From Desulfomicrobium sp. (GTDB taxonomy: Bacteria; Desulfobacterota; Desulfovibrionia; Desulfovibrionales; Desulfomicrobiaceae): 64,000 nucleotides of DNA. A program made the position numbers and the translations under genes. The stretch lies in NCBI GenBank assembly GCA_040768745.1, contig JAXGMI010000001.1, positions 1,408,001-1,472,000 on the forward strand, read 5' to 3'. Positions 3,024-19,317 of this stretch are shown piece by piece (position 1 is the first letter of the stretch; every line of letters begins with the position of its first letter). Below the pieces are notes generated by a model. It worked only from the letters and a program-made list of their open reading frames with translations. It was not told the origin of the DNA and did no database searches.

Positions 3024-3494
3024 TCAATGGCGGAGAGTGGCCTTGAGGCGGTTCGGGTGCAGAAGCAGATCCAGTCCGGCCTCGATACCGGGGACGAGGA
3101 TGTGGGCCGCGGACAGCGCGGACTGGGCCACGCCCTCCGGCTGCAGGATAGCCAGGGAGAGACCGCCTTCCTTGAGCATGGCGGCATCGTTGTTGCCGTT
3201 GCCCAGGCAGATGCAGGATTCAGCGCCCAGGCTGCGGATATATGCGACTTTGGCCTCGCGCTCATTGCCTGGCTGGAGAATATGCACGATGCAGTCGCTC
3301 TGCCCGAAGGCGACCCGCACCGTGCCGAAGGTGTCCGCAGTGAGAATGTGCACGCTCAAAAGGTTTGTGAGCTGGCTCAGGCGCGAAAAGACTCCTGGCT
3401 GGACCCGTCCGTCCAGGGCCAGGGTGCCGTTGTAATCCAGGACCAGATACCGGAGGCCGAGTTTCCCGAAGCCAGGGATATCAAGTTCAATCAT
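3024..3494 (-). CDS. HAD-superfamily hydrolase (soluble P-type-ATPase-like phosphatase)
   Basis: LDYNGTLA, TADTFG and GNGNND motifs. Confidence 0.9.
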   Translation of the reverse strand: MIELDIPGFGKLGLRYLVLDYNGTLALDGRVQPGVFSRLSQLTNLLSVHILTADTFGTVRVAFGQSDCIVHILQPGNEREAKVAYIRSLGAESCICLGNGNNDAAMLKEGGLSLAILQPEGVAQSALSAAHILVPGIEAGLDLLLHPNRLKATLRH

Positions 3495-5266: not shown

Positions 5267-6002
5267 GGGTCATGACTAGAACAGCGGGTTTGTCCTGATG
5301 ATTTTGAGCAGGACTTTATAGATGTTCTGGCCCCTATTGTTAAATCGAAATTCGCATTCTTTCAAATGCAAGAAAAAGGTTACCTTGCTGACACCTCTGA
5401 ACTTGGCAAGGCGAGTTTTCGAATAGCCCCAAAAGCTTTCTATGCCATTGATATGGCTACGTTCATTGGCAAATTCATTGTCTCCGTGGTTGACCCTGAA
5501 ATGCTTCTGGTACCCTATATCCACCAGGCCGTTATAGCCGCGCCATCCATCGGAATGGATGACGCTTTCGACGCTGACTCGACCTCGGATAACCGCCTGA
5601 AGTGTGGCACGGCTGCAATCAGGCACGATCTCGGTATAGACTTGGCCTTGGCGCTTGAAGATGCCAAACACAATGGTTTTACTGCTTGCGCCACGACCTC
5701 GGAGTCCTTTGACTCGGCGAGGCCCGAAGTAGCTTTCATCAACTTCGATTTCCCCGAGAACTGGGGCTTGTCGCTCGCAGTACTCAGCGATTCGTTGGCG
5801 CAAGGCCATGAGATACCTGTTCACGGTATTTCTGTTTAGGCCAGTCACCAGGGCGATCTGGGATGCATCCAGATCAAAGGAAAAGAGCTTCAAGAATTGC
5901 CTGAATTTGGCCTCTGAAATTTTTGAACGATTTGCGTACTTATTAACCCTTGCCATGACTCGATCCTAGCAGATTTGTTATCCGCTGTTCTAGTCATGAC
6001 CC
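5267..6002 (-). mobile_element. IS1595-family insertion sequence, copy 2 (736 bp)
   Basis: Same 21-bp IRs and identical transposase protein as copy 1; own 8-bp target duplication TTTTTTTA at 5259-5266 and 6003-6010. Confidence 0.95.
5276..5956 (-). CDS. IS1595-family transposase
   Basis: Translation identical to 1680-2360. Confidence 0.95.
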   Translation of the reverse strand: MARVNKYANRSKISEAKFRQFLKLFSFDLDASQIALVTGLNRNTVNRYLMALRQRIAEYCERQAPVLGEIEVDESYFGPRRVKGLRGRGASSKTIVFGIFKRQGQVYTEIVPDCSRATLQAVIRGRVSVESVIHSDGWRGYNGLVDIGYQKHFRVNHGDNEFANERSHINGIESFWGYSKTRLAKFRGVSKVTFFLHLKECEFRFNNRGQNIYKVLLKIIRTNPLF

Positions 6003-6038
6003 TTTTTTTAATACCTGATCACCCCTGGGCCTGCAAGG

Positions 6039-7289
6039 TCAGGGGCCGACAGCGGCGCTCATTCCGGCCAGATAGCCCGTGGACAGGGCTGCCTGCAGGT
6101 TGAAGCCCCCGGTGTCGGCGTCCATATCCAGCACTTCGCCGGCCAGGAAAAGCCCGGGGCAGATCCGGGACTGCATGGTCTTGGGATCCACTTCGCTCAG
6201 GCTCACTCCACCAGCGGTGATGATGGCCTCGCGCAGGGGGCGGTATCCACTGACCGTAAATCGCAGGCCCTTGAGCCAGAGCCGCAGTCGTTTGCGTTCC
6301 TCGGCAGAAATCTGGTGCGCGGCTTTGTCCCCGGTCAGCCCGGTCTGGTCGAGGCACACGGGGATGAGTTTGGGGGGCATCAGTCCACGCAGCAGGTTCT
6401 CCAGATGCATCTTGCCATGGCCCGCCAGGTCGCGCTGCAGGCGGGCGTCGAGTTTGTCCGGGTCCAGGGCCGGTTTCAGGTCGATGAAGAGCTCGGCCCT
6501 GCGCCCCTGGTCCACGGCCCGCACGGCGGCCTTGCTCAATGTCAGGATGATGGGGCCGGACAAACCGAAGTGCGTGAAGAGCATCTCTCCCATCTGCTCT
6601 CCGGCTTTCTTCCCATCCACCCGCAACTCAGCACGGACATTGCGCAGGGACAGACCCTGCAGTCTTGCCGCAATGTCCCCGGATGTGACCAGGGGGATGA
6701 GGGCCGGCGAGATGGGAATTATGGCGTGTCCGAGGCATTTGGCCAGGTCGTAGCCGTCGCCGGTGGAGCCGGTAGCCGGATAGGAAGCTCCGCCCGTGGC
6801 CAGGATGATTCTGTCCCCCGCGAGGGACTGGGAACCGAAGCCGACCTCGAAGCGAGCTTCGGCCCGTCTGATGTCCTGCACACGGCAGCCTGTTCGGATG
6901 GTCACGCCCTGGGATCGGGCATGGCGGACAAAAGCGTCCACGAGGTCCTGGGCGTTGTCGCTGGTCGGAAAAAGCCGCCCGCCGCGCTCCTCCTTGGTCG
7001 GAACCCCCAGGCTGTCGAGGAGTGCGACCGTGTCGGGGGTGAAGAAGTGAGCCAGGGCGGGCCGCAGGAAACGGAAATTCCTGCCAAAGTGAGAGAGAAA
7101 CTCATCCCTGGGTGCGGAGTTGCCGATATTGCCCCGGCCCTTGCCACAGATCCTGAGCTTGCGGCCCGGACGATCCATGCGCTCGAGCAGGGTCACGCTG
7201 GCGCCCCTGGCCGCTGCAGTGGCCGCGGCCAGGAGTCCGGCGGGACCTCCGCCTATGACGATGATGGAATGATGCATGGATGCTCTCAT
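6039..7289 (-). CDS. NAD(P)/FAD-dependent oxidoreductase, HI0933/BaiN family
   Basis: GGGPAG, GRKLRICGKGR, ATGGASYPATGSTGDG, GEVLDMDADTGGFNLQAA. Confidence 0.92.
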   Translation of the reverse strand: MRASMHHSIIVIGGGPAGLLAAATAAARGASVTLLERMDRPGRKLRICGKGRGNIGNSAPRDEFLSHFGRNFRFLRPALAHFFTPDTVALLDSLGVPTKEERGGRLFPTSDNAQDLVDAFVRHARSQGVTIRTGCRVQDIRRAEARFEVGFGSQSLAGDRIILATGGASYPATGSTGDGYDLAKCLGHAIIPISPALIPLVTSGDIAARLQGLSLRNVRAELRVDGKKAGEQMGEMLFTHFGLSGPIILTLSKAAVRAVDQGRRAELFIDLKPALDPDKLDARLQRDLAGHGKMHLENLLRGLMPPKLIPVCLDQTGLTGDKAAHQISAEERKRLRLWLKGLRFTVSGYRPLREAIITAGGVSLSEVDPKTMQSRICPGLFLAGEVLDMDADTGGFNLQAALSTGYLAGMSAAVGP

Positions 7290-7533
7290 AACGTGTTTTT
7301 TTCACGGAGGGAGAACAGATGTAAAGGAGCAGAAGAACATTGTTCTGTTCCGGTATTGCCGGGACAACTGGCGCACAGTGTGACGCACAGTTTAGGCACT
7401 GTTCTGTGTTCAGGACAATCTTCTGTCCTGTGCGGTCGGAGGCGTCGGACAATGCTCACGAACCACCCTGCCTTTCTGCGAAGAAGGCCGTGCAGCCCGA
7501 CTCCCCCGGTTTCAGGAAGGGCACATCGGCAGC

Positions 7534-7911
7534 TCAATCCTGTTTGATCTTGAACGTGACGTAGGCGGTTCTGCCTTCTGGAATGCGGTACTCAAGCCTG
7601 AGTTTCTCGATGGCCGATGCCATGCCCGGAATGTTGATCAACCCCGAGGATTCCCCGGATTTGAGCAATCCAGGTATTTTCAGGGCAACGGGCTGGCCCT
7701 GAACAGGGATCAGGGTCAGCCCGTCCAAATGGACGGTGGCCCCCTCGATCTGGAAGCGGAGGTTGTCGATCTTGCCCAGTTTTTCACCCACTTCGATGGT
7801 GGCAGACCTGTCCGAAGGCGACAGCTCCACCGGGTTCCGGGTGAGCCAGGGGCCGGCCAGGGCCGGGGCAGCTAAAAGCAGGCTGATGAAAATGAGGCAG
7901 AGTGTTTTCAT
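7534..7911 (-). CDS. Exported hypothetical protein
   Basis: Signal peptide MKTLCLIFISLLLAAPALA after a GGAG RBS. Confidence 0.75.
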   Translation of the reverse strand: MKTLCLIFISLLLAAPALAGPWLTRNPVELSPSDRSATIEVGEKLGKIDNLRFQIEGATVHLDGLTLIPVQGQPVALKIPGLLKSGESSGLINIPGMASAIEKLRLEYRIPEGRTAYVTFKIKQD

Positions 7912-8060
7912 GAGTGCTCCCTGAATTTGTTCAGGGCAGTCTAGACCGGGAAGCCGGAGCTGATCAAGAGCCGGTTTGGCGCCATTACGTCCCGGGGGCA
8001 TGGATGTGGACAACGATGCCAGAGAGCAGTTATCTGATTCTCCCAGCTCTGGAGGTGGCC

Positions 8061-8081
8061 GTGAGTATACTGATCAAAAAA
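8061..8081 (+). repeat. attL core GTGAGTATACTGATCAAAAAA
   Basis: Identical to 17540-17560; preceded by GGAGG at 8051, the apparent native RBS of the mtaD-like gene. Confidence 0.93.
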
Positions 8082-8192
8082 TACGGTTTCTCTCACTTTC
8101 TCCGAAATACCGTCTAGCCCTTGATATTCCTTGATTCCGGCTGAAAATATCCCTTGACGTTCTCCATATTTTTGCCTATTTTTGCCTTGAAA

Positions 8193-8211
8193 GTTGGGTT
8201 GAGGGTTGGGT
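8193..8211 (+). promoter_or_regulatory. Putative integrase arm-type binding sites (GTTGGGT x2)
   Basis: GTTGGGT at 8193 and 8205 (12-bp period); the same pair with the same period occurs at 17475 and 17487. Confidence 0.6.
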
Positions 8212-8231
8212 CAAAACTGGAGGCGGTGAAC

Positions 8232-9371
8232 ATGGCGGCACAGGGCAGAAACAAGACCAAGTATCCTGGCGTCTATTATACCGAAGGCAAGTCCACGACG
8301 GGCAAGTCCATTCGCCGCTACTATGTCGTCTTCAAGCGTGAGGGGAAGGTTTATGAAGAGGCCGCCAAGGTGCTGGTTGACGGCGGCCCTGATACCCGTC
8401 CGGCCGAGACCCCACAAGAGGCCAGCGCATGGCGCTCCCGCCGCATTGGCGAAGTTACCCAACAGCAGGGGAAGGGCAAGCCCGCCCTGACCGTGGATGA
8501 AATCTGGTCAAAGTGGGTTGAAGGCATGAAAGGTCGTGGCGGGCTGCACGCGGCGAGAAGTCGGTACAAGATGCACGTCGGCCGGTTTTTCGGTAAGCGG
8601 GTAGCCTCTGAGTTGTGCACGTTCGACGTGACCAGATTCCGCCGCGATCTGGAGCGGAATGGGTTGGCCCCTGCTTCCGTCAAGTTCTGCATGTCGCTTC
8701 TCTCGCAGCTTCTCAGGTGGGCAGCGGATCAAGACCTGATCCAAGACCCTGGACTCAAGTTTGATTATCCCAAATTCGACAACCAAAAGACCGAGAGCCT
8801 GACCCCGGAGCAGATCGGCCGGTATTGGGAAGTTCTCGACGCATGGCCGGATCAGCATATTGCCGACTTCTTTCGGGTCATGCTGCTGACGGGTGTTCGT
8901 AAGACGGCGCTGGCAAATGTCCGGTGGGATGACATCAACTTTGAGAACGGTTTTTTGACTCTCCGCGCCGAGACCTCCAAGAGTGGCAAGGTCAAGTCAA
9001 TCCCGCTTTCCGCTCAAGCATTGTCCGTTTTCAAAAGCATCCCCAGAACAGAGGACTCTGATCTTGTTTGGCCGGGCTGGAATGGCCCGCGCACAAATTT
9101 CAGCGGTCATGGGAGAGCTATCGCCAAGGCAGCAGGCTTGCCAGATAGTTTTCGAGGGTGTCATGGTCTTCGCCATGCCTTCGCGTCCGCCATGGCCAGC
9201 AGTGGGCGCGTTGATCTGTTCACGCTGCAAACTCTGCTGACCCATTCCAGCCCAAACATGACGCAGCGCTACAGTCACTTGTCCAGCGACGCTCTGCGCA
9301 GGGCGGCAGCGGTGGCTGACGACGTACTGGTCCCAGGTCCGGCGCTGAAGGTGGTGGCCGGGAAGGAATAA
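8232..9371 (+). CDS. Tyrosine recombinase / integrase
   Basis: LLTGVRK (R), TSKSGK (K), HGLRHAFAS (HxxR), LLTHSSPNMTQRYSHL (H..Y); GGAGG RBS. Confidence 0.95.
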   Translation: MAAQGRNKTKYPGVYYTEGKSTTGKSIRRYYVVFKREGKVYEEAAKVLVDGGPDTRPAETPQEASAWRSRRIGEVTQQQGKGKPALTVDEIWSKWVEGMKGRGGLHAARSRYKMHVGRFFGKRVASELCTFDVTRFRRDLERNGLAPASVKFCMSLLSQLLRWAADQDLIQDPGLKFDYPKFDNQKTESLTPEQIGRYWEVLDAWPDQHIADFFRVMLLTGVRKTALANVRWDDINFENGFLTLRAETSKSGKVKSIPLSAQALSVFKSIPRTEDSDLVWPGWNGPRTNFSGHGRAIAKAAGLPDSFRGCHGLRHAFASAMASSGRVDLFTLQTLLTHSSPNMTQRYSHLSSDALRRAAAVADDVLVPGPALKVVAGKE

Positions 9372-9425
9372 ATTTCGGGCCAGGCAAAGAGGTGGTGCTC
9401 TCTGCCCGGCCCTGGATCTTCTCAG

Positions 9426-10073
9426 GTGCAAGCGGAGGTGGCTTGGATGCATTGGGAAAAATTGCTTGGATATGAGCCTGCAAGCAGACTGCTTGTGAAA
9501 GACACAGGAGATCCGGCGCTTGTCCACATCCGAATCGTTGTCGAAGATGAAGAGAAAGACAAAGGCGCTATTCTGTGGGCTCTGCGCAAGACGTTTGAGA
9601 ATGGGCACGCCCTCCCGCCTGACCTTGGGCTTGCCGTCTGTGATCTTCTAGAGGCCAAGAACCCCGCCCATAAGCCCCCGACCCCAGACGCACAGAAGCT
9701 CCAGGGCCTAGCCAGTGCAGAGCTTTACGCGCAGATCCTCGGGGCTATCCGCGTCAAAAGAATAATGGAGGACCATCCTCGTTTTGCGGAAAAAGCCGCC
9801 CTTGACCTTTGCAAGCATCCCGGCGCGGGCATGTCTGTGGGAACAACCAAGTTCAAAGAATTTGAGAGGGTGCATCGGCTGGCGATTCTGTGTGGAGAGG
9901 TCCGGGAGATCCACAAGATGCTTGCCGACGGCATCATCACAATCGAAGGCGACTACCAGAAATGGATCAAGGCGCTCAAAAAATGCAAATTTCTTCCAGT
10001 AACCCAGACGTGCCGAGACCGCCTAGAGTGGATGTTCAAGAAAAACAGTCAATTAGATAGGTCGGGCAACTGA
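9426..10073 (+). CDS. Hypothetical protein (215 aa) in the element
   Basis: Long ORF co-oriented with int; start may be ATG at 9447; no family recognised. Confidence 0.7.
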   Translation: MQAEVAWMHWEKLLGYEPASRLLVKDTGDPALVHIRIVVEDEEKDKGAILWALRKTFENGHALPPDLGLAVCDLLEAKNPAHKPPTPDAQKLQGLASAELYAQILGAIRVKRIMEDHPRFAEKAALDLCKHPGAGMSVGTTKFKEFERVHRLAILCGEVREIHKMLADGIITIEGDYQKWIKALKKCKFLPVTQTCRDRLEWMFKKNSQLDRSGN

Positions 10074-10173
10074 CGACTTAAAAGCCCCTCTCATAAGCGT
10101 TTCTTCTCTCTATTTTCTAGCCGTGTTCTGCAATCCCGCAGTTCACGGCTTTTTACTTTTCCGAGGTAATCAC

Positions 10174-10353
10174 ATGGAACGAGTAAACGAGAAAGAAGCG
10201 GCAAAGTATCTTGGAATGTCAGTCAAGTGGTTGCAGCAGTCGCGGTGCTACGGACGCGGCCCGAAGTACATCAAGATCGGTCGGAGCGTCCGCTACAACG
10301 TCACCGATCTGGATCTGTACATCAAGTCCCGCACGATCAACCCAGCAGTGTAG
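10174..10353 (+). CDS. AlpA/excisionase-like HTH protein
   Basis: NEKEAAKYLGMSVKWLQQSR..GRGPKYIKIGRSVRY; GAGGT RBS. Confidence 0.88.
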   Translation: MERVNEKEAAKYLGMSVKWLQQSRCYGRGPKYIKIGRSVRYNVTDLDLYIKSRTINPAV

Positions 10354-10364
10354 GGGGTGCGACT

Positions 10365-10580
10365 ATGAAGCCAACAGAATTCACCGTCACGACTGCGGAG
10401 TATATCTCCCTGGCTGGCATCAATCCCAAGGGCCTGCAACAGTATCTGCGGGATGCGAAGGTCAAGGGCCGCGACTACATCGTCACCGGCAACCCGGACT
10501 GCATGGAGTTGTATTTTCGGAAGATCAACGGCCGCATCTATTTCAACCGGGCACAGATCGAAGTGCTCGTGCAGGAATAA
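10365..10580 (+). CDS. Small hypothetical protein (71 aa)
   Basis: GGGGG RBS and ATG; KINGRIYFNR ending resembles a second Xis-like wing. Confidence 0.6.
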   Translation: MKPTEFTVTTAEYISLAGINPKGLQQYLRDAKVKGRDYIVTGNPDCMELYFRKINGRIYFNRAQIEVLVQE

Positions 10581-10591
10581 GGAGTGGCAAC

Positions 10592-10825
10592 ATGATGACA
10601 ATGAAAAAGCCCGCCGGGCAAGGGCGAGCTTATGAGACCGGGCGCGGCGGTGATCCAAAAATCCGCAAAAAAAGCATGGCCGAAAATGACATTATTGTCA
10701 AGCTCTGCCATGCTTACGCCGGTCTCTTGAACGCTATGTTCATGCCCCTCTGCAATAATGCATCGGCATCGTTGGCAAGTTCATTTCTACCCAACCGGGA
10801 AACCCAACTCGGGAGGGCAAAATGA
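10592..10825 (+). CDS. Small hypothetical protein upstream of the replicase
   Basis: AAGGAG RBS; MMTMKKPAGQG...; ATGA overlap with rep. Confidence 0.5.
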   Translation: MMTMKKPAGQGRAYETGRGGDPKIRKKSMAENDIIVKLCHAYAGLLNAMFMPLCNNASASLASSFLPNRETQLGRAK

Positions 10826-13200
10826 ACGCAGAAATTACAAACGGCATCTTTATCGACACGCTTTTCGGCAAGCTCCCTGCAGACGCTTGCGTACCTGTGG
10901 CAAGCATCAAAGACGTATCTGCCCCAGGATGGCCAGCTGATAGTTTTGTGAATGGCCAGGAATTTACGGTGCGTCATGGCTGGAATAGCTACTATTGCTT
11001 GGGCATCCATCGCAAGGACGACCCCCAGCCACGGAGAAAAGAGAGCTGCCTAGGTCTATGCATGGTCATGCTCGACGACGTTGGGACGAAGGCAGATCGT
11101 GACAAGATCGATCTGACGCCGACCTACGCAATAGAGACCAGCTCTGGCAACTTCCAACTTGGCTACAGGCTGACCGTCCGCGTCACCGACATGGGACTTA
11201 TTGATCGGCTGGGCAAGGCAATTATCAGGAAGGGACTCTCTGACCCTGGAGCTGGTGGTCTAGGGACGAGATACGCCAGGCTCCCACAGTGCTGGAACAG
11301 CAAGTCCAATCCGCCGTTTCAGTGCCGATTGACCGAGTGGAACCCCGAGATTGCCTACTCTCCACAGGAGCTGATTGACGGTCTCGGTCTGGAGTTGGAC
11401 CCGCCCAAGCCCGAGCGCAAGGCCGCCGATCCCACCAAGAGGCAGTGTCTCTCTGAAATTGACCCGTATGTCCGCAAGGCTCTGGAAAATGAGTGCGCAT
11501 CCGTGGCGAGCGCTCCACAGGGACAGCGCAACGCGCAACTAAACCAGTCATCCTTCGCAATTGGTCAGTTTGTCGGCGGCGGTGAACTTGACGAGCAAGA
11601 GGCCGTCAACGCTCTGCAGCAGGCAGCGGCGGCTTGTGGGCTGGGAGAGACCGAAGCTGACAAGACAATCCGGTCGGGCCTGACTGCAGGCATGGCTGAA
11701 CCCCGCCCGGCCCCAGGAGAGAGTGATTGGAACCCCGACGGCGGGCAGCGGGCCGGGAAGAGTAAATTCGTAAATTCGTTAAATTCGTCTGTTAGTAACG
11801 AAGATCCTGACGCCTGGGCCCCTACGATCAGGACATGGCCCAAACTCGAACGAGCTGCGCTTCCCGGCATCGTGGGTGACTTCGTAGACCTGGCCACGGA
11901 CGGCAGTGAAGCAGATCCGGCGGCGGTGCTGGCAACCATGCTTGTGCGCTTTGGCGTGGAGGCTGGCTCTCCCGAGCCAAGCGCCCGCCCCCACGTCTAT
12001 GTGGGCGAGTCCAGACATGAATCCCGCATCAATGCCGTCATCGTCGGCAGGTCGGCCAAGGCCAGAAAGGGCACGTCCGGTGCTCCCGTGGCCAGGCTGT
12101 TCAAAGTTCCCGAGGGCAGCGTGGACGCCCCTGTCATGGGTGCAACAAGTCTAGGCCCTCTCTCGACGGGTGAGGGCATCGTCTACGCAGTGCGTGATGC
12201 TCTGGAGTCGTGGGACGAGAAAGAGCAGGAATTCAAGGTCACAGACCCCGGCGTGAAGGACAAGCGCCTCTACGTCCAAGAGGAGGAGTTTGCAGCGGCG
12301 ATCAACGCCGGGAAGCGTGACGGCAATACTCTTTCGGCTACCCTTCGCGCCCTGTGGGATTCGGGAACCCGTAGCCCGATGACCAAGACCTCAAGGACGA
12401 AATGCACAGACGCGCACGTCGGTATCCTGGCCCATATCACAATCGATGAATTGGCCATGAGCCTGTCTGCCTGCGACAAGCTGAACGGCTACGCCAACCG
12501 CTTTCTGTGGGTGCTGGCCAGACGTACCAAGCGCGTGCCCAGGCCCCGGAGAATGCCCGACGATCTGTTCATCCCGATCCGCAATGAAATATGGCGTCGG
12601 CTTAACCTGGCTCATGCTGCTGGTCGGATGCGTCTGACCCCGGCTGCGGGCGATCTGTGGGATGCGGAATATGATCGGCTGACCGAGGACCGGCCCGGCA
12701 TCGCTGGTGCTATTACGGCGCGTGCAGAGGCGCAGGTGGTCAGGCTCTCCATGATCTATGCCCTCTGTGGCGGGCAACCCGAGATCGACGCCGCGCACGT
12801 CCAGGCAGCGCTGGCCCTGTGGCGGTATGCCCAAGCATCTGCAGAGTATATCTTCAACGAGGACTCTGTGGGCAGCAAGCTGGACTGCAAGGTCAAAGAG
12901 ATCCTCTCGTGCGTGCCTGCTGGGATGAGCTTGACCGAGATCCACAACGCCACGGGGAACAACCACAAGGCTGCAGATCTGCGTAACTCCATCCAGAGGC
13001 TTGTGGACGCCGGGCTGGTCAGAAGCGAGTCAGTCAGATCCGAGGGTGCGGCGAAGCCGAAGACCGTTTTTTTCTCAAACGAAGAAACTAATTTTACGAA
13101 TTTACGAATTTACTCCGACGAGGAGCAAGACAGTAAATTCGTAAATTCGTTAAATTCGTACATTCGTACGGATGAAATCCCCGACGAGGTGACGATATGA
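10822..13200 (+). CDS. Replicase: RepB-like primase + PriCT-like + DUF3987 domains
   Basis: MLDDVGTK...ETSSGNFQLGY...TRYARLP (RepB-type primase); GQRNAQLNQSSF (PriCT-like); STGEGI...EEEF...LWDSG (DUF3987/YfjI-like); C-terminal winged-helix-like segment. Confidence 0.8.
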   Translation: MNAEITNGIFIDTLFGKLPADACVPVASIKDVSAPGWPADSFVNGQEFTVRHGWNSYYCLGIHRKDDPQPRRKESCLGLCMVMLDDVGTKADRDKIDLTPTYAIETSSGNFQLGYRLTVRVTDMGLIDRLGKAIIRKGLSDPGAGGLGTRYARLPQCWNSKSNPPFQCRLTEWNPEIAYSPQELIDGLGLELDPPKPERKAADPTKRQCLSEIDPYVRKALENECASVASAPQGQRNAQLNQSSFAIGQFVGGGELDEQEAVNALQQAAAACGLGETEADKTIRSGLTAGMAEPRPAPGESDWNPDGGQRAGKSKFVNSLNSSVSNEDPDAWAPTIRTWPKLERAALPGIVGDFVDLATDGSEADPAAVLATMLVRFGVEAGSPEPSARPHVYVGESRHESRINAVIVGRSAKARKGTSGAPVARLFKVPEGSVDAPVMGATSLGPLSTGEGIVYAVRDALESWDEKEQEFKVTDPGVKDKRLYVQEEEFAAAINAGKRDGNTLSATLRALWDSGTRSPMTKTSRTKCTDAHVGILAHITIDELAMSLSACDKLNGYANRFLWVLARRTKRVPRPRRMPDDLFIPIRNEIWRRLNLAHAAGRMRLTPAAGDLWDAEYDRLTEDRPGIAGAITARAEAQVVRLSMIYALCGGQPEIDAAHVQAALALWRYAQASAEYIFNEDSVGSKLDCKVKEILSCVPAGMSLTEIHNATGNNHKAADLRNSIQRLVDAGLVRSESVRSEGAAKPKTVFFSNEETNFTNLRIYSDEEQDSKFVNSLNSYIRTDEIPDEVTI
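11761..11788 (+). repeat. Iteron-like repeat (TAAATTCG x3) inside rep
   Basis: AGTAAATTCGTAAATTCGTTAAATTCGT, identical to 13132-13159. Confidence 0.85.
13096..13159. repeat. Inverted and tandem iterons, putative replication origin
   Basis: 19-bp perfect IR, 13096-13114 / 13132-13150, built from TAAATTCG units; AT-rich flank. Confidence 0.8.
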
Positions 13201-13502
13201 ACGCCGTCACCGTCATCCGCGCCCGTGGCGCAATCCCACGTATCGACGCGGCCGGGAACCTGGCTCTTGACCTCTCCCGCGTGCCGAAATCGCTCCGGCC
13301 CGAGGTCGTGAACCTGGCCAGGCAACACAAGACCGACATCATCAACGAGTTGAGCGGAGGGCCTGCGGGCTCTCCCGCTCCATCCATCCCGTGGGCCTGC
13401 CCTCTCGGGCATCGTGAGTTCTGGCTCTCCGACTACAATCTGAAGATCTGCGCCAAGTGCCATCCCCGGCCGGTCAAGGGAGGTGCTGCATGGAAGCAAT
13501 GA
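13197..13502 (+). CDS. Hypothetical protein with C-terminal Cys/His cluster
   Basis: ATGA overlap with rep; CPLGH...CAKCH. Confidence 0.65.
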   Translation: MNAVTVIRARGAIPRIDAAGNLALDLSRVPKSLRPEVVNLARQHKTDIINELSGGPAGSPAPSIPWACPLGHREFWLSDYNLKICAKCHPRPVKGGAAWKQ

Positions 13503-13720
13503 CCGAGCGCCTGCTGGATCTGTGGATGAAGGCGAAGCTGGCCGATAAGGACGGATTCCTTCTCATGGTCGGCGGCGGGCATAGTGGGATGCCGTGGTGG
13601 AACCGAGCGCACGTCAACGAGATGCTGGCAGCGTGGCGGGCTCTCCCGAAGCATACGCAGACGGCATTCCTGACCGTGGCCGTCAACGAGGAGCCAGAGG
13701 TGCGTCATGAGGACGCCTGA
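13490..13720 (+). CDS. Hypothetical protein
   Basis: GGAGGT RBS; MEAMTERLLDLW... Confidence 0.6.
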   Translation: MEAMTERLLDLWMKAKLADKDGFLLMVGGGHSGMPWWNRAHVNEMLAAWRALPKHTQTAFLTVAVNEEPEVRHEDA

Positions 13721-13877
13721 CATTCACGAGCGCATCGCCACGGCTGAGGACGAAATAAAGGGCCTTGAATCCATGATCGACGCCAGGACGCGGAAGTTAT
13801 GGGCTGAGATCCAGAAGCTACAGGCCGAAGTCCTCGAACTACGCAACAAAGACAACGCCAAGGAGCCACAAACATGA
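13707..13877 (+). CDS. Small coiled-coil protein (56 aa, below the ORF-track cutoff)
   Basis: GAGGT RBS; MRTPDIHERIATAEDEIKGLESMIDARTRKLWAEIQKLQAEVLELRNKDNAKEPQT*; ATGA overlap with the next gene. Confidence 0.6.
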   Translation: MRTPDIHERIATAEDEIKGLESMIDARTRKLWAEIQKLQAEVLELRNKDNAKEPQT

Positions 13878-14332
13878 AGCCAAGTGCATGGTTAGGAGTT
13901 GACCCCGGAAAGTCGGGTGCGTGCGCCGTCATCCACGACGGTGGGCACCTCGTTGCAGATTGGCCTGGAGATCCGGCTGGAGCTGCTGAAGTGCTGCGCG
14001 GGTGGCTGGACCGCTTCGAGATCCGTCTGGCGGCCCTGGAGAAAGTTGGAGCCCGGCCCGGTCAAGGTGTCTCGTCTATGTTCAGTTTCGGCCGCAACCT
14101 CGGGGTGTGGGAAGGTATCTTTGCCTGTCTGCGCATCCCCTACGTCATGCCGACGCCGCAACAGTGGCAGAAAGGACTTGTCATGCCATCCGACGGGGCA
14201 GACCCGAAGGACCGCGCCCTGACCGTAGCCAGGCGACTTTTCCCGGACGCAGACTTGCGCTTGAAAAAGCATGACGGCCGAGCTGACGCCCTGCTGCTGG
14301 CATGGTGGGCAAGGAGACAGACTGCAATATGA
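13874..14332 (+). CDS. Phage-type RuvC-like Holliday junction resolvase
   Basis: GVDPGKSGA, LEKVGARPGQGVSSMFSFG, PQQWQK, HDGRADALLLA. Confidence 0.85.
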   Translation: MKPSAWLGVDPGKSGACAVIHDGGHLVADWPGDPAGAAEVLRGWLDRFEIRLAALEKVGARPGQGVSSMFSFGRNLGVWEGIFACLRIPYVMPTPQQWQKGLVMPSDGADPKDRALTVARRLFPDADLRLKKHDGRADALLLAWWARRQTAI

Positions 14333-14517
14333 CAGCAATGGATGAATTACTAATTCACGACCGCATATCACAATGGCCTGGAATTGCGATAAAAGTTACT
14401 TTGAACCCAACCGGCTACCCTACCCTAAGTCCAGAGTTGGCAGTAAATGGACTGCGTTATCTTGTCCAGAAAATGCCGATGCCCGTATATTCTGTCCTAA
14501 CGGAGGCGCCGACATGA
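14329..14517 (+). CDS. Small hypothetical protein
   Basis: ATGA overlaps on both sides. Confidence 0.5.
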   Translation: MTAMDELLIHDRISQWPGIAIKVTLNPTGYPTLSPELAVNGLRYLVQKMPMPVYSVLTEAPT

Positions 14518-14723
14518 AAGAAAATAAACCCCCGGTCAGTTGTCCTACTTGTGGCGGGTGCGACACGATACGACGCAGAGGTCCACAAGGTCTATGCGAG
14601 ACCTGTTATCAGCAGAGACACGAATGTCGGAGCTGTGGCCAGCGCTTTTTGAGCTTTTGGGACTTGTCCTCGACGCGCTGTTACGGTGCCGCCCCCCGTC
14701 TGGAGGTGGTCGCCAATGCCTGA
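14514..14723 (+). CDS. Zinc-finger protein, Ogr/Delta-like candidate activator
   Basis: CPTCGG...RHECRSCGQRF; GGAGG RBS. Confidence 0.55.
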   Translation: MKENKPPVSCPTCGGCDTIRRRGPQGLCETCYQQRHECRSCGQRFLSFWDLSSTRCYGAAPRLEVVANA

Positions 14724-15174
14724 AAAAACAGCTCGGAAACAGACCTCCACACGATTCAAGCCGGGCAGATCCGGCAACCCTGCAGGACGCCCCAAGGGTG
14801 CGCGGAATAGGGCCTCTGTGTTGGCGCAGGCGCTCATGGAAGATCAGACCGCGGCCGTGGTGCAGACCGTCATCAATGCGGCCCTCACGGGCGATATGAC
14901 CGCGTGCAAGCTCATTGTGGAACGGCTCATTCCGCCGGTGAAGGAACGGACCATTGACGCGGATCTGAAGTTGCCCGCGACCATTACGGCCGCAAATGCC
15001 GGTGCTGTTTTTGCGGAGATCTTCAAGGCCGTCTCCGGCGGGCGGCTTGTCCCTGGCGAGGGCAAGGTGCTGGTGGAGATGATGAACGCCTATTTGAGCG
15101 CCTGCGAATACAGCGAGCTGTCCGAGCGCATTTCCGAGTTGGAGGAAACAGCTCCGAGGAACAAGCGATGGTAG
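14716..15174 (+). CDS. DUF5681-domain protein (terminase-small-subunit-like)
   Basis: RFKPGRSGNPAGRPKGARN signature; GDMTACKLIVERL; GGAGGT RBS. Confidence 0.8.
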   Translation: MPEKTARKQTSTRFKPGRSGNPAGRPKGARNRASVLAQALMEDQTAAVVQTVINAALTGDMTACKLIVERLIPPVKERTIDADLKLPATITAANAGAVFAEIFKAVSGGRLVPGEGKVLVEMMNAYLSACEYSELSERISELEETAPRNKRW

Positions 15175-15554
15175 CCGCGTCATCCCTACGCAGGCGGCTG
15201 CGCAAATTGCCCCAGGCGAAGCCCGCGCCTGTGTGCTGGACAATCGACGTTTACCCCGACGGTCGGGAGCTGGACCATTGGACCGGTCGGCCGTGGCCCG
15301 TGCCGGAATACCTAGCCCGCCCGGCTGGAGCGCCTGACCTGGTGCTGCGGCTGACGATGGGCGACGATGGCGAGGTGGGGGCGTTGGGGGAACATGGAGA
15401 TGGTCCGGGACGTGGGCACAAAAGAGTTGATAATATAAACTCTTTAACCACCACCAACCAGGTTCAGGTTGATAATATCAACTTGAAAACCAAAGGCGGC
15501 ACCGACCCCACTTACCTACTCGCCAGGATGCAACGCCCTCGTGGAATGAGGTGA
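15168..15554 (+). CDS. Hypothetical protein, possibly chimeric 3' end
   Basis: GAGGA RBS; SLRRRLRK N-terminus; 3' end contains two DNA palindromes. Confidence 0.55.
   Translation: MVAASSLRRRLRKLPQAKPAPVCWTIDVYPDGRELDHWTGRPWPVPEYLARPAGAPDLVLRLTMGDDGEVGALGEHGDGPGRGHKRVDNINSLTTTNQVQVDNINLKTKGGTDPTYLLARMQRPRGMR
15421..15487. repeat. Two 25-bp near-palindromes with core GTTGATAATAT(A/C)AAC
   Basis: AAAGAGTTGATAATATAAACTCTTT (15421-15445) and TTCAGGTTGATAATATCAACTTGAA (15463-15487). Confidence 0.85.
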
Positions 15555-15558
15555 CGGC

Positions 15559-15834
15559 ATGAAAGGAACCGAATCTTTACGCCGTCGCCTGCGCAAAATG
15601 TCCAACGAGTTGCCCGAAGGGATGCAGAACCTTCCCCGCGTGCTGGAGTACGACGAGAGCGATCCTGCAGGCCCGTGGGATGGATTCAAGACCAGGGAAG
15701 AGGCCGCGGACTACTGGTGGAAGGTGCATCGAAGCCGGATCTCTTTCGTGACGTACAACCCGGACGGCTCCGACGATATGTGGGGCACGCCGCTGCCAGG
15801 CGAACCGGATTATACTGATTGGTTTATCGGCTGA
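15559..15834 (+). CDS. Hypothetical protein
   Basis: GAGGTG RBS; shares SLRRRLRK N-terminus with the preceding ORF. Confidence 0.65.
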   Translation: MKGTESLRRRLRKMSNELPEGMQNLPRVLEYDESDPAGPWDGFKTREEAADYWWKVHRSRISFVTYNPDGSDDMWGTPLPGEPDYTDWFIG

Positions 15835-15877
15835 AAAATTTAACCGCCCGAGAGACCGGGCGCGGAGGTAAAGAGAA

Positions 15878-16822
15878 ATGGCAGTTCAGAAATTAGGCAA
15901 TGGCCGATTCAAGGTTTTTCACAAGGAAGTGGCCGCGCCCACGGCGGAAATGGAACACCTGCGCAGTCAGGCCCCGCGGACGCCCACGGGACTTTCCGGC
16001 TTTTTGCAGGGTAGCCTGCACGCGAACGGCTTCAAACAACTTCGCGCGTATGTCGCGAACAGTGACAGCGAGTGGACGCGCCAACAGATTCTCGACATGG
16101 ACAACTCCTTGTCGAACATAGCCGACGAGATCCAGTTGGACGACAAGTTGACCAAGGCCCGCAACACCGTGCTGGACGTGGATTTGACCGACGCGGCCCG
16201 CCGCAAGCGTGCGCTGGTGATTATTGCGGACCTGCTGGCCGACATTCACGGACGCCACGGGCGAGTGGTGGCTCGCGCCATGACAGCGCTGAATGAAGCC
16301 GTGGACGTGGTGAAACTGGCCCTTGCGCCCGACCTGACCGGCAACGAGCAGGTGCGGGAGCTGCGAGCGCAGGAAGTCCGCCGCGCCATCTTCGACACGG
16401 ACAAGGGGGAACGTGCGGCACTGGTGCTGGACCTGGGCAACCGTGCGGCCCTGGAAGGGCTGCTGGCCGTGGAAAGTTGTCCCTTGGGACGCTTGGTTGA
16501 GCCGGAGGTTGTGGGCCAGGCGAAGCGTGGCGCGCTGTCCAAGATGGGCGTGGACTTTCTGCTGGATCAGATCGAGGACCGCCGGGACATCCTGCGCAAC
16601 GTGGCCGCGCGCTGCGACATGCTGGAACAGGGCATCAGAGAGTTTCTTTCGGCCTATGGCGTGAAGCCCGCCGCGCCTGTGACCTGGATAGTAGCCACGG
16701 CGTCCGCCATCGAGGAGAGCGGACGATTCTTGACGATTCCGGGTGGCGGTGGCGTCCATTACCGCGCCCCGGAACCGCCGCCGGTTGAGGATGAGGGCGG
16801 AGAAGGCGAAGGCGAGGGATAG
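15878..16822 (+). CDS. Hypothetical helical protein (314 aa) with acidic Gly-rich tail
   Basis: GGAGGT RBS; GC3-rich codons; ends PPPVEDEGGEGEGEG. Confidence 0.8.
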   Translation: MAVQKLGNGRFKVFHKEVAAPTAEMEHLRSQAPRTPTGLSGFLQGSLHANGFKQLRAYVANSDSEWTRQQILDMDNSLSNIADEIQLDDKLTKARNTVLDVDLTDAARRKRALVIIADLLADIHGRHGRVVARAMTALNEAVDVVKLALAPDLTGNEQVRELRAQEVRRAIFDTDKGERAALVLDLGNRAALEGLLAVESCPLGRLVEPEVVGQAKRGALSKMGVDFLLDQIEDRRDILRNVAARCDMLEQGIREFLSAYGVKPAAPVTWIVATASAIEESGRFLTIPGGGGVHYRAPEPPPVEDEGGEGEGEG

Positions 16823-17284
16823 TTCAATATCGCCTCCCGCGATTCGACATAGCCCGCTGAAGTATTCGTTGCCTGTGACAATCAGACATCCGGCGTCAAA
16901 TTGACACGTGACAATTTGAACCAGCTCGCGCACGCGCGGGACTGACAGTGACGGAAATGGGGCAACGGTTGCACGATTAACCAGCTCGCGCACGCGCGGG
17001 ACTGAATATCACTTCGTAAGTCAACTTACGAAGTCCGAGGACCAGCTCGCGCACGCGCGGGACTGAACATCCGGCGTCAAATTGACACGTGACAATTTGA
17101 TAGACAAGGCCCGACACCTTTCAGAAATCCACAAAGCCCCTTCACCCCTATGGCCCGTCCTTGTATCCGCACTGCTTGCTAAAGAATGGTCCGTCAAAGA
17201 CACAAAGCAGGTTGAGGATGAGGGCGGCGAGGGCGGAGAAGGGACCGAGGGATAGTTCAATCGCGCCTCCCGCGATTCGACATA
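16783..17284 (+). repeat. Imperfect ~70-bp direct repeats (16783-16851 and 17210-17284) bracketing the array cassette
   Basis: GGTTGAGGATGAGGGCGG...CGAGGGATAGTTCAAT..CGCCTCCCGCGATTCGACATA present twice. Confidence 0.9.
16920..17066. CRISPR. CRISPR-like mini-array (3 x 26-bp repeats; 34- and 35-bp spacers), no cas genes in window
   Basis: ACCAGCTCGCGCACGCGCGGGACTGA at 16920, 16980 and 17041; hairpin-forming. The repeat structure is certain; CRISPR function is not. Confidence 0.5.
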
Positions 17285-17353
17285 AAGCCCGGTCAGTGGG
17301 ATGCTGGCCGGGCATCTACTCAAGGCCGCATCGCAAATTGCGTGCATCATATA

Positions 17354-17387
17354 GGTCATCCGGCCGAGTGCTGGGTGGCCTTTTTTT
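17354..17387 (+). terminator. Rho-independent terminator at the right end of the element
   Basis: GGTCATCCGGC-CGAGT-GCTGGGTGGCC-TTTTTTT. Confidence 0.8.
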
Positions 17388-17539
17388 GTGATGACAATCC
17401 CCGGATAATCGAAGAAAAGTGTCCCATATCCTCGACGGTGAAAAGCCCGCTAATGGACTCCCGATGCGTCATTTGTTGGGTTAAAAGTTGGGTAGAGCTT
17501 TCGTGTTATATATATTTCAAGGCATTAGAGGTGTGAAGA

Positions 17540-17560
17540 GTGAGTATACTGATCAAAAAA
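17540..17560 (+). repeat. attR core (first 7 codons of the amidohydrolase gene)
   Basis: Identical to 8061-8081. Confidence 0.93.
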
Positions 17561-18820
17561 GTGCGTCTCAAAGGCGACATGGTGGACGTGCTCATCAAGG
17601 GCAACCGCTTCGATTCCATCGGCACGGATATAGATGCCGCGGCCGAGACCGTCATTGACGGCACGGGCAAGGCCATCCTGCCGTCCTTCCACAACGCCCA
17701 CACCCATGCGGCCATGACACTCATGCGCGGCTATGCCGATGACATGGAGCTGCACACCTGGTTGTCAGAACACATCTGGCCGTTCGAGGCCAGACTGACC
17801 GAGGACGATGTCTACTGTGGGGCAAAGCTGGCCTGCCTGGAAATGATCAAGTCCGGGACCACGTTTTTCGCCGACATGTACTGGCACTGGAAGGGAACGG
17901 CCAGGGCCGTGGAAGAAATGGGCCTGCGCGCAGCCCTGTCGGCCGCCTTTTTCGACTTTGACGATCCTGCCCGGGCCCGGGCCATGAAGCAGCAGGTCAT
18001 GGATCTGCATGCACTCAGCGCCAGCTCTTCGGACCGCATCCAGTTCATTCTCGGACCGCATGCCATCTACACCGTCTCTGAGGACTCCCTGCGCTGGCTG
18101 AGAGAGTACGCGCATCGTCACGGTCTCCTGGTCCACCTCCATCTTTCGGAAACGAAGAAGGAAGTGGATGACTGCATAGCCAGACACGGCCGACGGCCAG
18201 TGGAATATCTGAACGATCTCGGCTTGCTGGCACCGAACCTGATTCTCGTTCACGCGGTGTGGATGACCGGGGGGGATGTGGCGCTGCTCGCCAGGCATGG
18301 GGTACAGGTGGTACACTGTCCCGTCTCGAACATGAAGCTGTGTTCCGGGCAGTTCGAATATGGAGCCATGCGGCGGCAGGGGGTGGCCGTCGCCTTGGGT
18401 ACGGACGGATGCTCTTCCAACAACAATCTGGATATGATCGAGGAGATGAAGATCGCCTCCCTGCTGGCCAAGGTTACGGCCATGGACCCCACACTCTGTC
18501 CCGCGGAAGAGAGCCTGGATCTGGCCTCGGTCAACGGCGCCCGTATGTACGGCCTGGAGGGGGGGCGCATCGCTTCCGGGCTGCTCGCGGACTGCATTCT
18601 GGTGGACCTGGATCATGTGCGCATGGTGCCGGGGCACAATGTGGTTTCCAACATGGTCTACAGCGCGAACAGTTCCTGTGTGGACACGACCATCTGCAAC
18701 GGTCGGGTGCTTATGCGCGGGCGCAAGGTCGAGGGTGAAGAGGAGATATTGGAACAGGTGCGGGCCTGCGTGGCCAGGCTGACCGGGGCCACTTCAAGGG
18801 GAGACAAGGCGTGCTCCTGA
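17540..18820 (+). CDS. mtaD: Amidohydrolase, MTA/SAH deaminase-like
   Basis: HNAHTHAAMTLMRGYADD, HLHLSET, HCPVSNMKL, LGTDGCSSNNNLDM. Confidence 0.85.
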   Translation: MSILIKKVRLKGDMVDVLIKGNRFDSIGTDIDAAAETVIDGTGKAILPSFHNAHTHAAMTLMRGYADDMELHTWLSEHIWPFEARLTEDDVYCGAKLACLEMIKSGTTFFADMYWHWKGTARAVEEMGLRAALSAAFFDFDDPARARAMKQQVMDLHALSASSSDRIQFILGPHAIYTVSEDSLRWLREYAHRHGLLVHLHLSETKKEVDDCIARHGRRPVEYLNDLGLLAPNLILVHAVWMTGGDVALLARHGVQVVHCPVSNMKLCSGQFEYGAMRRQGVAVALGTDGCSSNNNLDMIEEMKIASLLAKVTAMDPTLCPAEESLDLASVNGARMYGLEGGRIASGLLADCILVDLDHVRMVPGHNVVSNMVYSANSSCVDTTICNGRVLMRGRKVEGEEEILEQVRACVARLTGATSRGDKACS

Positions 18821-19317
18821 TTTACACCGGTAACGGTAAGGGCAAGACCTCCGCCTGCGTGGGTCAGGTGGTCCGAGCCTTTGGCCAGGGGCTGCGGGTG
18901 GCCTTCGGCCAGTTCATGAAAAAGGACGGTCAGGCCGGGGAGCAAAAAGTGCTGTCCGAGCTGCTGGGTGCACGGTTTCTGGCCTCGGGCGCCGGGTTTT
19001 TCCGCAATGTTGCGGACTACCCCCGACATCGGGAAAAGGCGGAGGCATTGCTCGGCTGGGCCAAAAAAAAATTGGATGAAGGCGTGGACCTCCTTGTCCT
19101 GGACGAGATCCTGTATGCCCTCGGCCATGATCTGGTGCGTCGGGAGGAGGTGGAGAACCTTGTCGGCCGCTGCGCTGCCCAGGACTGCCATTTGGTCTTG
19201 TCCGGGCGAGGGGCACCGGATTGGCTGGTTGAAATGGCGGACATCGTCTCGGACATTCGCGAGGTCAAGCATATCCATGCTCAGGGTGGTCCAGCCCGGC
19301 CTGGTATCGAGTTTTGA
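18811..19317 (+). CDS. cobO: Cob(I)yrinic acid a,c-diamide adenosyltransferase
   Basis: IYTGNGKGKTSA, LVLDEI, LVLSGRGAP, GIEF C-terminus. Confidence 0.9.
   Translation: MLLIYTGNGKGKTSACVGQVVRAFGQGLRVAFGQFMKKDGQAGEQKVLSELLGARFLASGAGFFRNVADYPRHREKAEALLGWAKKKLDEGVDLLVLDEILYALGHDLVRREEVENLVGRCAAQDCHLVLSGRGAPDWLVEMADIVSDIREVKHIHAQGGPARPGIEF

Follow-up and report, generated by a model that had tools for sequence, protein, structure and literature searches.

A repeat block inside a ParB-methylase gene fragment of a Desulfomicrobium integrative element: a possible relic of a CRISPR-type array

Near the right end of a small integrative element in Desulfomicrobium sp. (assembly GCA_040768745.1, contig JAXGMI010000001.1), three identical short repeats alternate with units of nearly constant length, some of them strongly palindromic. 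Is this block a CRISPR-type array on a mobile element, an assembly of captured protein-binding sites, or simply a by-product of recombination? It lies in a stretch of 64,000 nucleotides (positions 1,408,001 to 1,472,000 of the contig), here called the window, and all positions below are those of the window. An earlier interpretation made from these letters alone (the sequence-only reading) had described a CRISPR-like mini-array on a satellite in which every spacer is a palindrome, and had proposed either guide RNAs aimed at other phages or a rack of binding sites at the DNA level.

Anatomy of the block and of the element that carries it

The repeat R (ACCAGCTCGCGCACGCGCGGGACTGA) is 26 bp long and occurs in three identical copies starting at 16920, 16980 and 17041 (60 and 61 bp apart), exactly as first described. 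The true inter-repeat units are two, S1 and S2, which are unrelated to one another (Table 1). A further 34-bp unit, S0, lies at 16886-16919 and has an exact second copy at 17067-17100. The identity of these two copies and the perfect arms of S2 had both been claimed, and both were borne out. Unit lengths are near-constant (S1 34, S2 35 and the duplicated S0 34 nt), and the duplication of S0 ends exactly at the R borders. The CRISPR-like architecture of repeats and units holds good. The inserted 181 bp are made up of R-S1-R-S2-R (147 bp) and the second S0. No second R locus was found in the 3.09-Mb host genome, even with 5 mismatches allowed, and no leader-like sequence was seen beside the block, which is abutted by coding fragments.

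Table 1. Features of the integrative element and of the repeat block near its right end (window positions).
Feature	Position	Strand	Remarks
attL core, GTGAGTATACTGATCAAAAAA	8061..8081	+	21-bp exact direct repeat with 17540-17560
Tyrosine integrase	8154..9371	+	PF00589, 1.3e-20; phrog_1, 2.1e-55
Large primase/helicase-like replication protein	10822..13200	+	Weak DUF3987 below the Pfam cut-off; PHROG primase and helicase matches
Last gene of the element, 314 aa, acidic GEGEG tail	15878..16822	+	Syntenic in G016
3' end of the 314-aa gene, first copy, and start of terminator; left mosaic junction	16780..16859	+	
ParB-methylase fragment, part A, translating as PAEVFVACDNQTSGVKLTRDNL; includes S0 copy 1 (16886-16919)	16853..16919	+	19/21 residues identical to P0010
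Repeat R1	16920..16945	+	
Unit S1, 34 bp, weak dyad	16946..16979	+	
Repeat R2	16980..17005	+	
Unit S2, 35 bp, with a perfect 11-bp dyad; apparently copied from a P0015-like ParB-methylase allele (hypervariable segment)	17006..17040	+	
Repeat R3	17041..17066	+	
ParB-methylase fragment, part B, 47 codons; starts with S0 copy 2 (17067-17100)	17067..17209	+	
3' end of the 314-aa gene, second, diverged copy (last 16 codons and downstream); right junction	17207..17284	+	
Conserved tail of the element family, terminator at 17353-17390	17256..17539	+	Same ordered motifs after the last gene in G016
attR core, first codons of the host amidohydrolase gene (17540-18820)	17540..17560	+	

The palindromes are of unequal weight. 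Dyads of the S2 class (perfect 11-bp arms, 2-bp gap) were counted at 85 sites in the 3.09-Mb genome and those of the S0 class (12-bp arms, 1 mismatch) at 269, or about 0.001 per 35-bp unit and 0.003 per unit, respectively. Dyads of the S1 class (11-bp arms, up to 2 mismatches) are present at 3309 sites in the same genome, about 0.04 per unit, which places the S1 dyad close to chance. The statement that every spacer is a palindrome could therefore not be upheld, as S1 is near chance and S0 with its copy is a resident coding duplicate around the 147-bp block. The hairpin proposed for R was found on the + strand (-12.6 kcal/mol; 3/200 shuffles equal or better) and not on the - strand, where 61/200 shuffles fold equally well. 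The coding sequence at 16875-16915 also has GTGWCAAT half-sites, three of them within 42 bp in direct, inverted and direct orientation, and 5 of the 7 matches to this motif in the window are inside the ParB-methylase gene fragment, the duplicate being counted.

About 440 bp separate the block from the right end of the element, which is 9.5 kb long and may reasonably be called satellite-like. Beside the genes in Table 1 the element encodes a RusA-type resolvase, a DUF5681 protein and several proteins without assigned function, and no virion genes (capsid, tail) were found among the element proteins scanned. Two copies of the att core are found in the host genome (G000) only; each of 6 other family genomes has a single copy, indicating empty sites. 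Relatives of the replication protein occur in 71 of 401 genomes of the order, the host counted. The 314-aa protein has a much narrower distribution, with 4 homologues only in a search of 5.8 billion clusters and no match to its profile in viral contigs. This family, noted in the window, in L007 and in L050 (11317-12174), is very small, with 3 distant members in the genus, and the number of GEGEG-type repeats in the acidic tail varies between copies of the gene.

The integration point corresponds to the first codons of an MTA/SAH-deaminase-like amidohydrolase gene, and ahead of the restored start the element provides a new ribosome-binding region. The relative G016 likewise terminates directly before a host gene start. 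To judge from weak Rfam matches to microRNA precursors on both strands, a long hairpin or palindrome may be present at 13087-13159, where the replication gene has its 3' end. In another relative, L007, a promoter-like TTGAC is found beside a GTTAC-TG-GTAAC palindrome (1230-1290) downstream of the homologous gene, and is followed by further small genes that the element in the window does not have.

The surroundings of the block are mosaic. In both L007 (a metagenome contig, protein 93% identical) and G016, the stop codon of the last gene is followed by a hairpin/T-run terminator. Similarity between the window and L007 breaks off at 16859, within the left arm of this terminator, and the foreign fragment runs from 16854, so that 16854-17209 is foreign to the element family. 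Behind it, the 3' end of the 314-aa gene is repeated together with about 30 bp after the gene, and this second copy (17207-17284) is 88-95% identical to 16780-16851 and 80% to L007. The motifs that follow the terminator in G016 recur in the same order at 17256-17540, behind the second copy. At the left junction CCGCTG is common to both parts, and at the right junction 2-3 nt are shared. The block is absent from L007 and G016, the two related elements with readable DNA, contrary to the expectation that the repeat would be kept in such relatives, and the other fetched loci contained no detectable array either. The arrangement is best regarded as a one-off mosaic scar and not as a conserved module.

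The gene fragment around the block and the source of its units

Translated in the + frame, part B shows 73-89% identity to 9 proteins, four of which, all 522-530 aa in length, have both a ParB-like domain (PF02195) and a domain of N4/N6 DNA methylases (PF01555). About 58 codons of this ParB-methylase gene are kept in the window, split by the 181-bp insert. A minus-strand gene had been considered for the flank and was rejected once the homologues supported the + frame. Members of the ParB-domain/N4-N6 methylase family (P0010-P0019) come mostly from wastewater and digester assemblies.

Contigs of four public sequencing runs (X1, X5, X6 and X7) were compared with the window over 15500-18000. In X5, X6 and X7, which come from three studies other than that of X1, 16885 is joined straight to 17067, skipping 181 bp with 34 bp ambiguous; depth is zero across 16928-17011, and the flanks past 16854 and 17209 are unlike the window. 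The X5 and X6 contigs span 16854-16885, joined to 17067, and all three run on in frame past 17209, the loose ends of the metagenome contigs extending in frame as the ParB-methylase homologues do. Five of the seven listed variant positions of X7 in 17157-17177 are third codon positions. The junctions from 16885 to 17067 indicate that a form with one S0 and no repeats exists. X1 is identical to the window, its unitigs breaking at the S0 copies as expected of a 34-bp repeat. The array-bearing form was seen in one study (X1-X4) and in this genome only. No RNA data set holding the array was listed; X7, labelled RNA-Seq, was judged to be probably DNA and is without the array. Judging from the homologues and these contigs, S0 is to be read as coding sequence of the ParB-domain/DNA-methylase gene, and not as a spacer in place.

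The host has no other copy of the gene, and neither S0 nor 17130-17151 gave an exact match in the scan of viral contigs. A blastn search with 16852-17300 against phages and plasmids returned no match, and a DNA search with 17067-17209 against the 401 order genomes returned chance matches of 19-27 nt only, in 6 genomes. The two matches of an S0 20-mer in genome_contigs have no wider similarity and are about what chance would give. With the family profile, distant methylases only (25-27% identity) were recovered from viral contigs. P0011 matched phage records through its methylase domain alone, with 0 of 20 records covering 80% of the query, and found relatives of 22-32% identity in 4 of the 401 order genomes.

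S2 leads back to the same family. In the frame of R2 it translates as EYHFVSQLTKSED, and 10 of 10 residues match P0015, in which YHFVSQLTKS stands immediately after a conserved RGAAEV motif; by our own estimate, the chance of such a match is around 1e-6. On this evidence S2 evidently derives from the hypervariable segment of a P0015-like allele, the same segment that encodes S0. Among five long, close proteins, pairwise identity is 12.7% in this segment; the HTH region, taken as the 60 columns that precede it, reaches 45.6%, and the remainder 83-87%. The segment spans about 20 residues and is sharply bounded, and at least two alleles carry 24-bp palindromes there; those of S0 and S2 lie at differing offsets inside it. 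Residues ~115-175 of P0014 appear to be a tandem duplication of the HTH-containing segment that precedes it. Palindrome potential estimated by back-translation was 11 at the P0015 site against a background of 8-10, and gave no discrimination. At the DNA level, no exact match to S2 (centre taken as NN) was found in the viral contigs.

The remaining unit has no comparable source. S1 was not found in the viral contigs, nor with up to 5 mismatches in the host genome, and in any frame neither S1 nor R matched 67 family proteins over 6 residues or more. When the R1-S1-R2 peptide was compared with a profile of the region, 43/300 shuffles scored equally well. On this result the block as a whole was rejected as collinear coding sequence, and the 5-mers AGLTV and VRELV belong to the methylase domain. 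Seventeen nucleotides of S1 match a host ORF exactly (G000:C1:1183225-1183241, encoding PEMGQR); the match does not extend and is probably due to chance.

Units without matches elsewhere would have spoken against the sequence-only reading, but matches were found, for S0 in ParB-methylase genes in the contigs of three studies and for S2 in ten of ten residues of another allele. These matches fit the proposal that the units come from palindromic sites of other mobile elements. Other parts of the sequence-only reading were not supported, S0 being the gene in which the block is embedded and not a spacer, and the dyad of S1 being near chance. The palindromes in the block mostly reflect a shared origin in one palindrome-rich gene segment.

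Comparison with CRISPR arrays and other repeat systems

Several features of CRISPR arrays were found in the block, namely three exact repeats within the range of about 23-50 nt, unrelated spacers of near-equal length, and protospacer matches for S0 and S2. S0 is identical over 34 bp to the gene contigs of X5-X7. Protospacer flanks at the DNA level are available for S0 only, too few to show a consistent PAM.

That no cas gene lies in the window was confirmed and extends further, as Cas1, Cas2, Cas5d and Cas6 had no matches in the whole host genome (99.99% complete) and Cas3 had matches below the family cut-off only. No other repeat-spacer array was found in the host, the four matches of a crude detector proving by eye to be short-period tandem repeats. 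In the family, Cas1 is present in 21 of 34 other genomes, and 7 arrays were recovered from nine fetched Cas1 loci of relatives, their repeats measuring 32-37 nt and their periods 65-79 nt. In those with 32-nt repeats the period is 65-68 nt, leaving about 33-36 nt for each spacer, and S0, S1 and S2 fall into this length class.

The repeat sequence has no such counterpart. Against the seven repeats recovered from relatives the best local score of R was 11 (shuffle mean 5.7, maximum 13); a 23-mer of R with up to 3 mismatches was found in none of the 34 other family genomes, and the exact 23-mer was absent from both genome_contigs and viral_contigs. The suggested comparison with host CRISPR repeats therefore ended without a partner, the host having no other array and R being unlike the seven repeats of relatives. 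No Rfam family, CRISPR-DR included, matched the array at E<=1 within 6000-19000, and the proposed likeness to type I-E arrays found no support in it. With 26 nt, of which 5 nt lie 3' of the hairpin, R is atypical beside class 1 repeats.

Mini-arrays with 1-2 spacers on viruses are documented, as is recombination between spacer and target (PMC8616872, PMC11656645, in the available passages). The block resembles mini-CRISPR arrays of mobile elements, as far as those passages describe them, in having one or two spacers between identical repeats on a cas-less carrier and at least two units that match mobile-element genes. The mini-arrays documented there have repeats identical or nearly identical to the host CRISPR (PMC11656645, PMC8616872), whereas R matches no CRISPR repeat of relatives or of the host, which has none, and there is no leader. 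Moreover, in contrast to the mini-arrays of those passages, the block lies within a remnant of its own target gene and is absent from related elements. RNA anti-CRISPRs and solitary repeat units, in the available part of PMC10651486, mimic the host's own repeats. The block shares with them, on that description, CRISPR-repeat-like hairpins on a cas-less mobile element, but there is no host CRISPR here to mimic and R is dissimilar to the relatives' repeats. Among known kinds, orphan or mobile-element mini-CRISPR arrays come closest, and the block would be an atypical variant of them, probably relict, located in its own target.

Off-target "neo-CRISPR" arrays arise by Cas1-Cas2 integration at non-CRISPR sites. 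Such an origin would account for a repeat without relatives, the missing leader, the lack of adjacent cas genes and the normal spacer length, but the native repeat length would be expected and R has 26 nt as compared with 32-37 nt in relatives.

Other repeat systems were considered and dropped. The repeats of type III toxin-antitoxin RNAs do not fit, because the inter-repeat units are unrelated and a gene remnant and a terminator, not a toxin, come next. An iteron origin, or a centromere array shared by the element family, was rejected on the absence of the block from L007 and G016. For pac/cos, res and integron attC sites, IS200/IS605-type hairpin elements and a translational bypass cassette, either the relatives are without the block or the defining feature is missing. 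A new Cas-free system is a weak candidate, given the single occurrence, the recombination scar and the absence from related elements.

Origin of the block and its meaning

The explanation preferred here, tentatively and at somewhat less than even confidence, is that a fragment of a CRISPR-type array was joined to its target gene by spacer-protospacer recombination, became trapped in the element and is now an inert relic. Under this explanation R1-S1-R2-S2-R3 would be a piece of a repeat-spacer array that formerly held S0 as a spacer, with R as a CRISPR-type repeat, possibly a pseudo-repeat. At least two spacers, S0 and S2, would have been acquired from other mobile elements, whose ParB-domain/DNA-methylase genes have a hypervariable segment rich in palindromes between the two domains. 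The array fragment would then have come to lie inside the target gene when spacer S0 underwent homologous recombination with the identical 34-bp protospacer, either by going in through one S0 copy and out through a second one, or by way of a small circle of repeats and spacers excised from an array. Subsequently, 356 bp of the interrupted gene may have been trapped where the last gene of the element is present as two diverged 3' ends, with microhomology at both junctions.

Two features of the anatomy would follow from this course of events. Recombination through S0 predicts that exactly one spacer length (34 bp) is duplicated on both sides of the block, and ruler-type acquisition predicts that the duplicated segment equals S1 and S2 in length. 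We know of no process besides CRISPR-type acquisition that sets 34-35-nt pieces of foreign genes between identical repeats. Varble (2019) and Watson (2018), as cited in PMC8616872, reportedly described spacer-protospacer recombination between CRISPR loci and phages. As in that process, a 34-bp identity joins array and target gene on both sides; the present case differs from documented ones in that the array fragment lies within the target and in that two S0 copies or a small circle are required. In the present host the block is most likely inert, because there are no Cas proteins and no leader, it occurs once, and related elements lack it.

Against the array-fragment explanation stand the lack of R relatives, the atypical form of R, the missing leader, the lack of a demonstrable PAM, and an S1 without source. 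So does the restriction of the array-bearing form to one study and this genome. Neither of the alternative substrates for the recombination, two S0 copies or a 181-bp circle, was observed. Two spacers taken from one segment of about 60 bp in different alleles would be unexpected under random acquisition, so that a hotspot or selection is needed.

A scar made without any CRISPR system is rather unlikely. Template switching or illegitimate recombination among co-infecting ParB-methylase alleles, at a fragile palindromic segment, would have stacked pieces of alleles, with R as filler copied three times. Palindromes are fragile sites, the whole region is mosaic with microhomology junctions and a duplicated gene end, and an R without known relatives would be no surprise. 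What such a process leaves unexplained is three identical 26-bp copies in alternation with units of 34, 35 and 34 nt and the exact stop of gene similarity at the R borders; nor does R1-S1-R2 show a detectable relation to the gene family, 43/300 shuffled peptides doing equally well.

Less probable still is a working mini-array, fed by Cas proteins in trans from a helper phage, a co-resident element or other hosts, that attacks competitors at the hypervariable segment, with transcription running on, for instance, from the last gene. The truncation of the last-gene terminator at 16859, with the next terminator at 17353-17381, would allow such read-through, and the frequency of Cas1 in the family means that other hosts could provide Cas. 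In architecture and in the length of its units the block resembles CRISPR arrays, the gene family matched by S0 and S2 has distant members named phage methyltransferases in the sources, and mini-arrays against related viruses are documented in the available part of PMC11656645. However, the arrays documented there share host CRISPR repeats, whereas R is unlike the seven recovered from relatives and absent from the 34 family genomes, and the host has no Cas, the block stands among gene fragments without a leader and the related elements do without it.

A more elaborate reading, which we consider improbable, has the block as a CRISPR-type-acquired collection of allele-specific palindromic tags read by the protein's own variable HTH, serving as competitor-aimed guides or as a decoy rack of the satellite. 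Were it true, the ParB-methylase gene would contain, in its hypervariable segment of about 20 residues, an identity tag resembling a centromere or operator.

Most doubtful is a rack at the DNA level, in which putative allele-specific palindromic sites of the ParB/HTH domains are stacked, with R as a fixed linker, as a decoy or hitch-hiking site by which the element titrates or is bound by ParB-methylase proteins: two strong palindromes from the same gene segment of two alleles, the three half-sites in the window's allele and a fall in identity through the HTH region and segment that fits co-varying specificity speak for it, but the palindromes sit at different offsets, that of S1 is weak, related elements lack the block, the back-translation test on other alleles did not discriminate, and CRISPR-type acquisition is the sole known process able to build such a rack.

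If the array-fragment explanation is true, the block would be a naturally occurring trace of an event in which a CRISPR-type array recombined with its target. The trace would be preserved in a mobile element of a Cas-less host, and its repeat would belong to no described family. It would show a route by which array fragments reach mobile elements, and thereby an origin of exotic-looking orphan "arrays". The most interesting lead is the hypervariable palindromic segment of the ParB-methylases, which seems to be a favoured source of spacers and is a candidate specificity determinant or target in conflict between elements.
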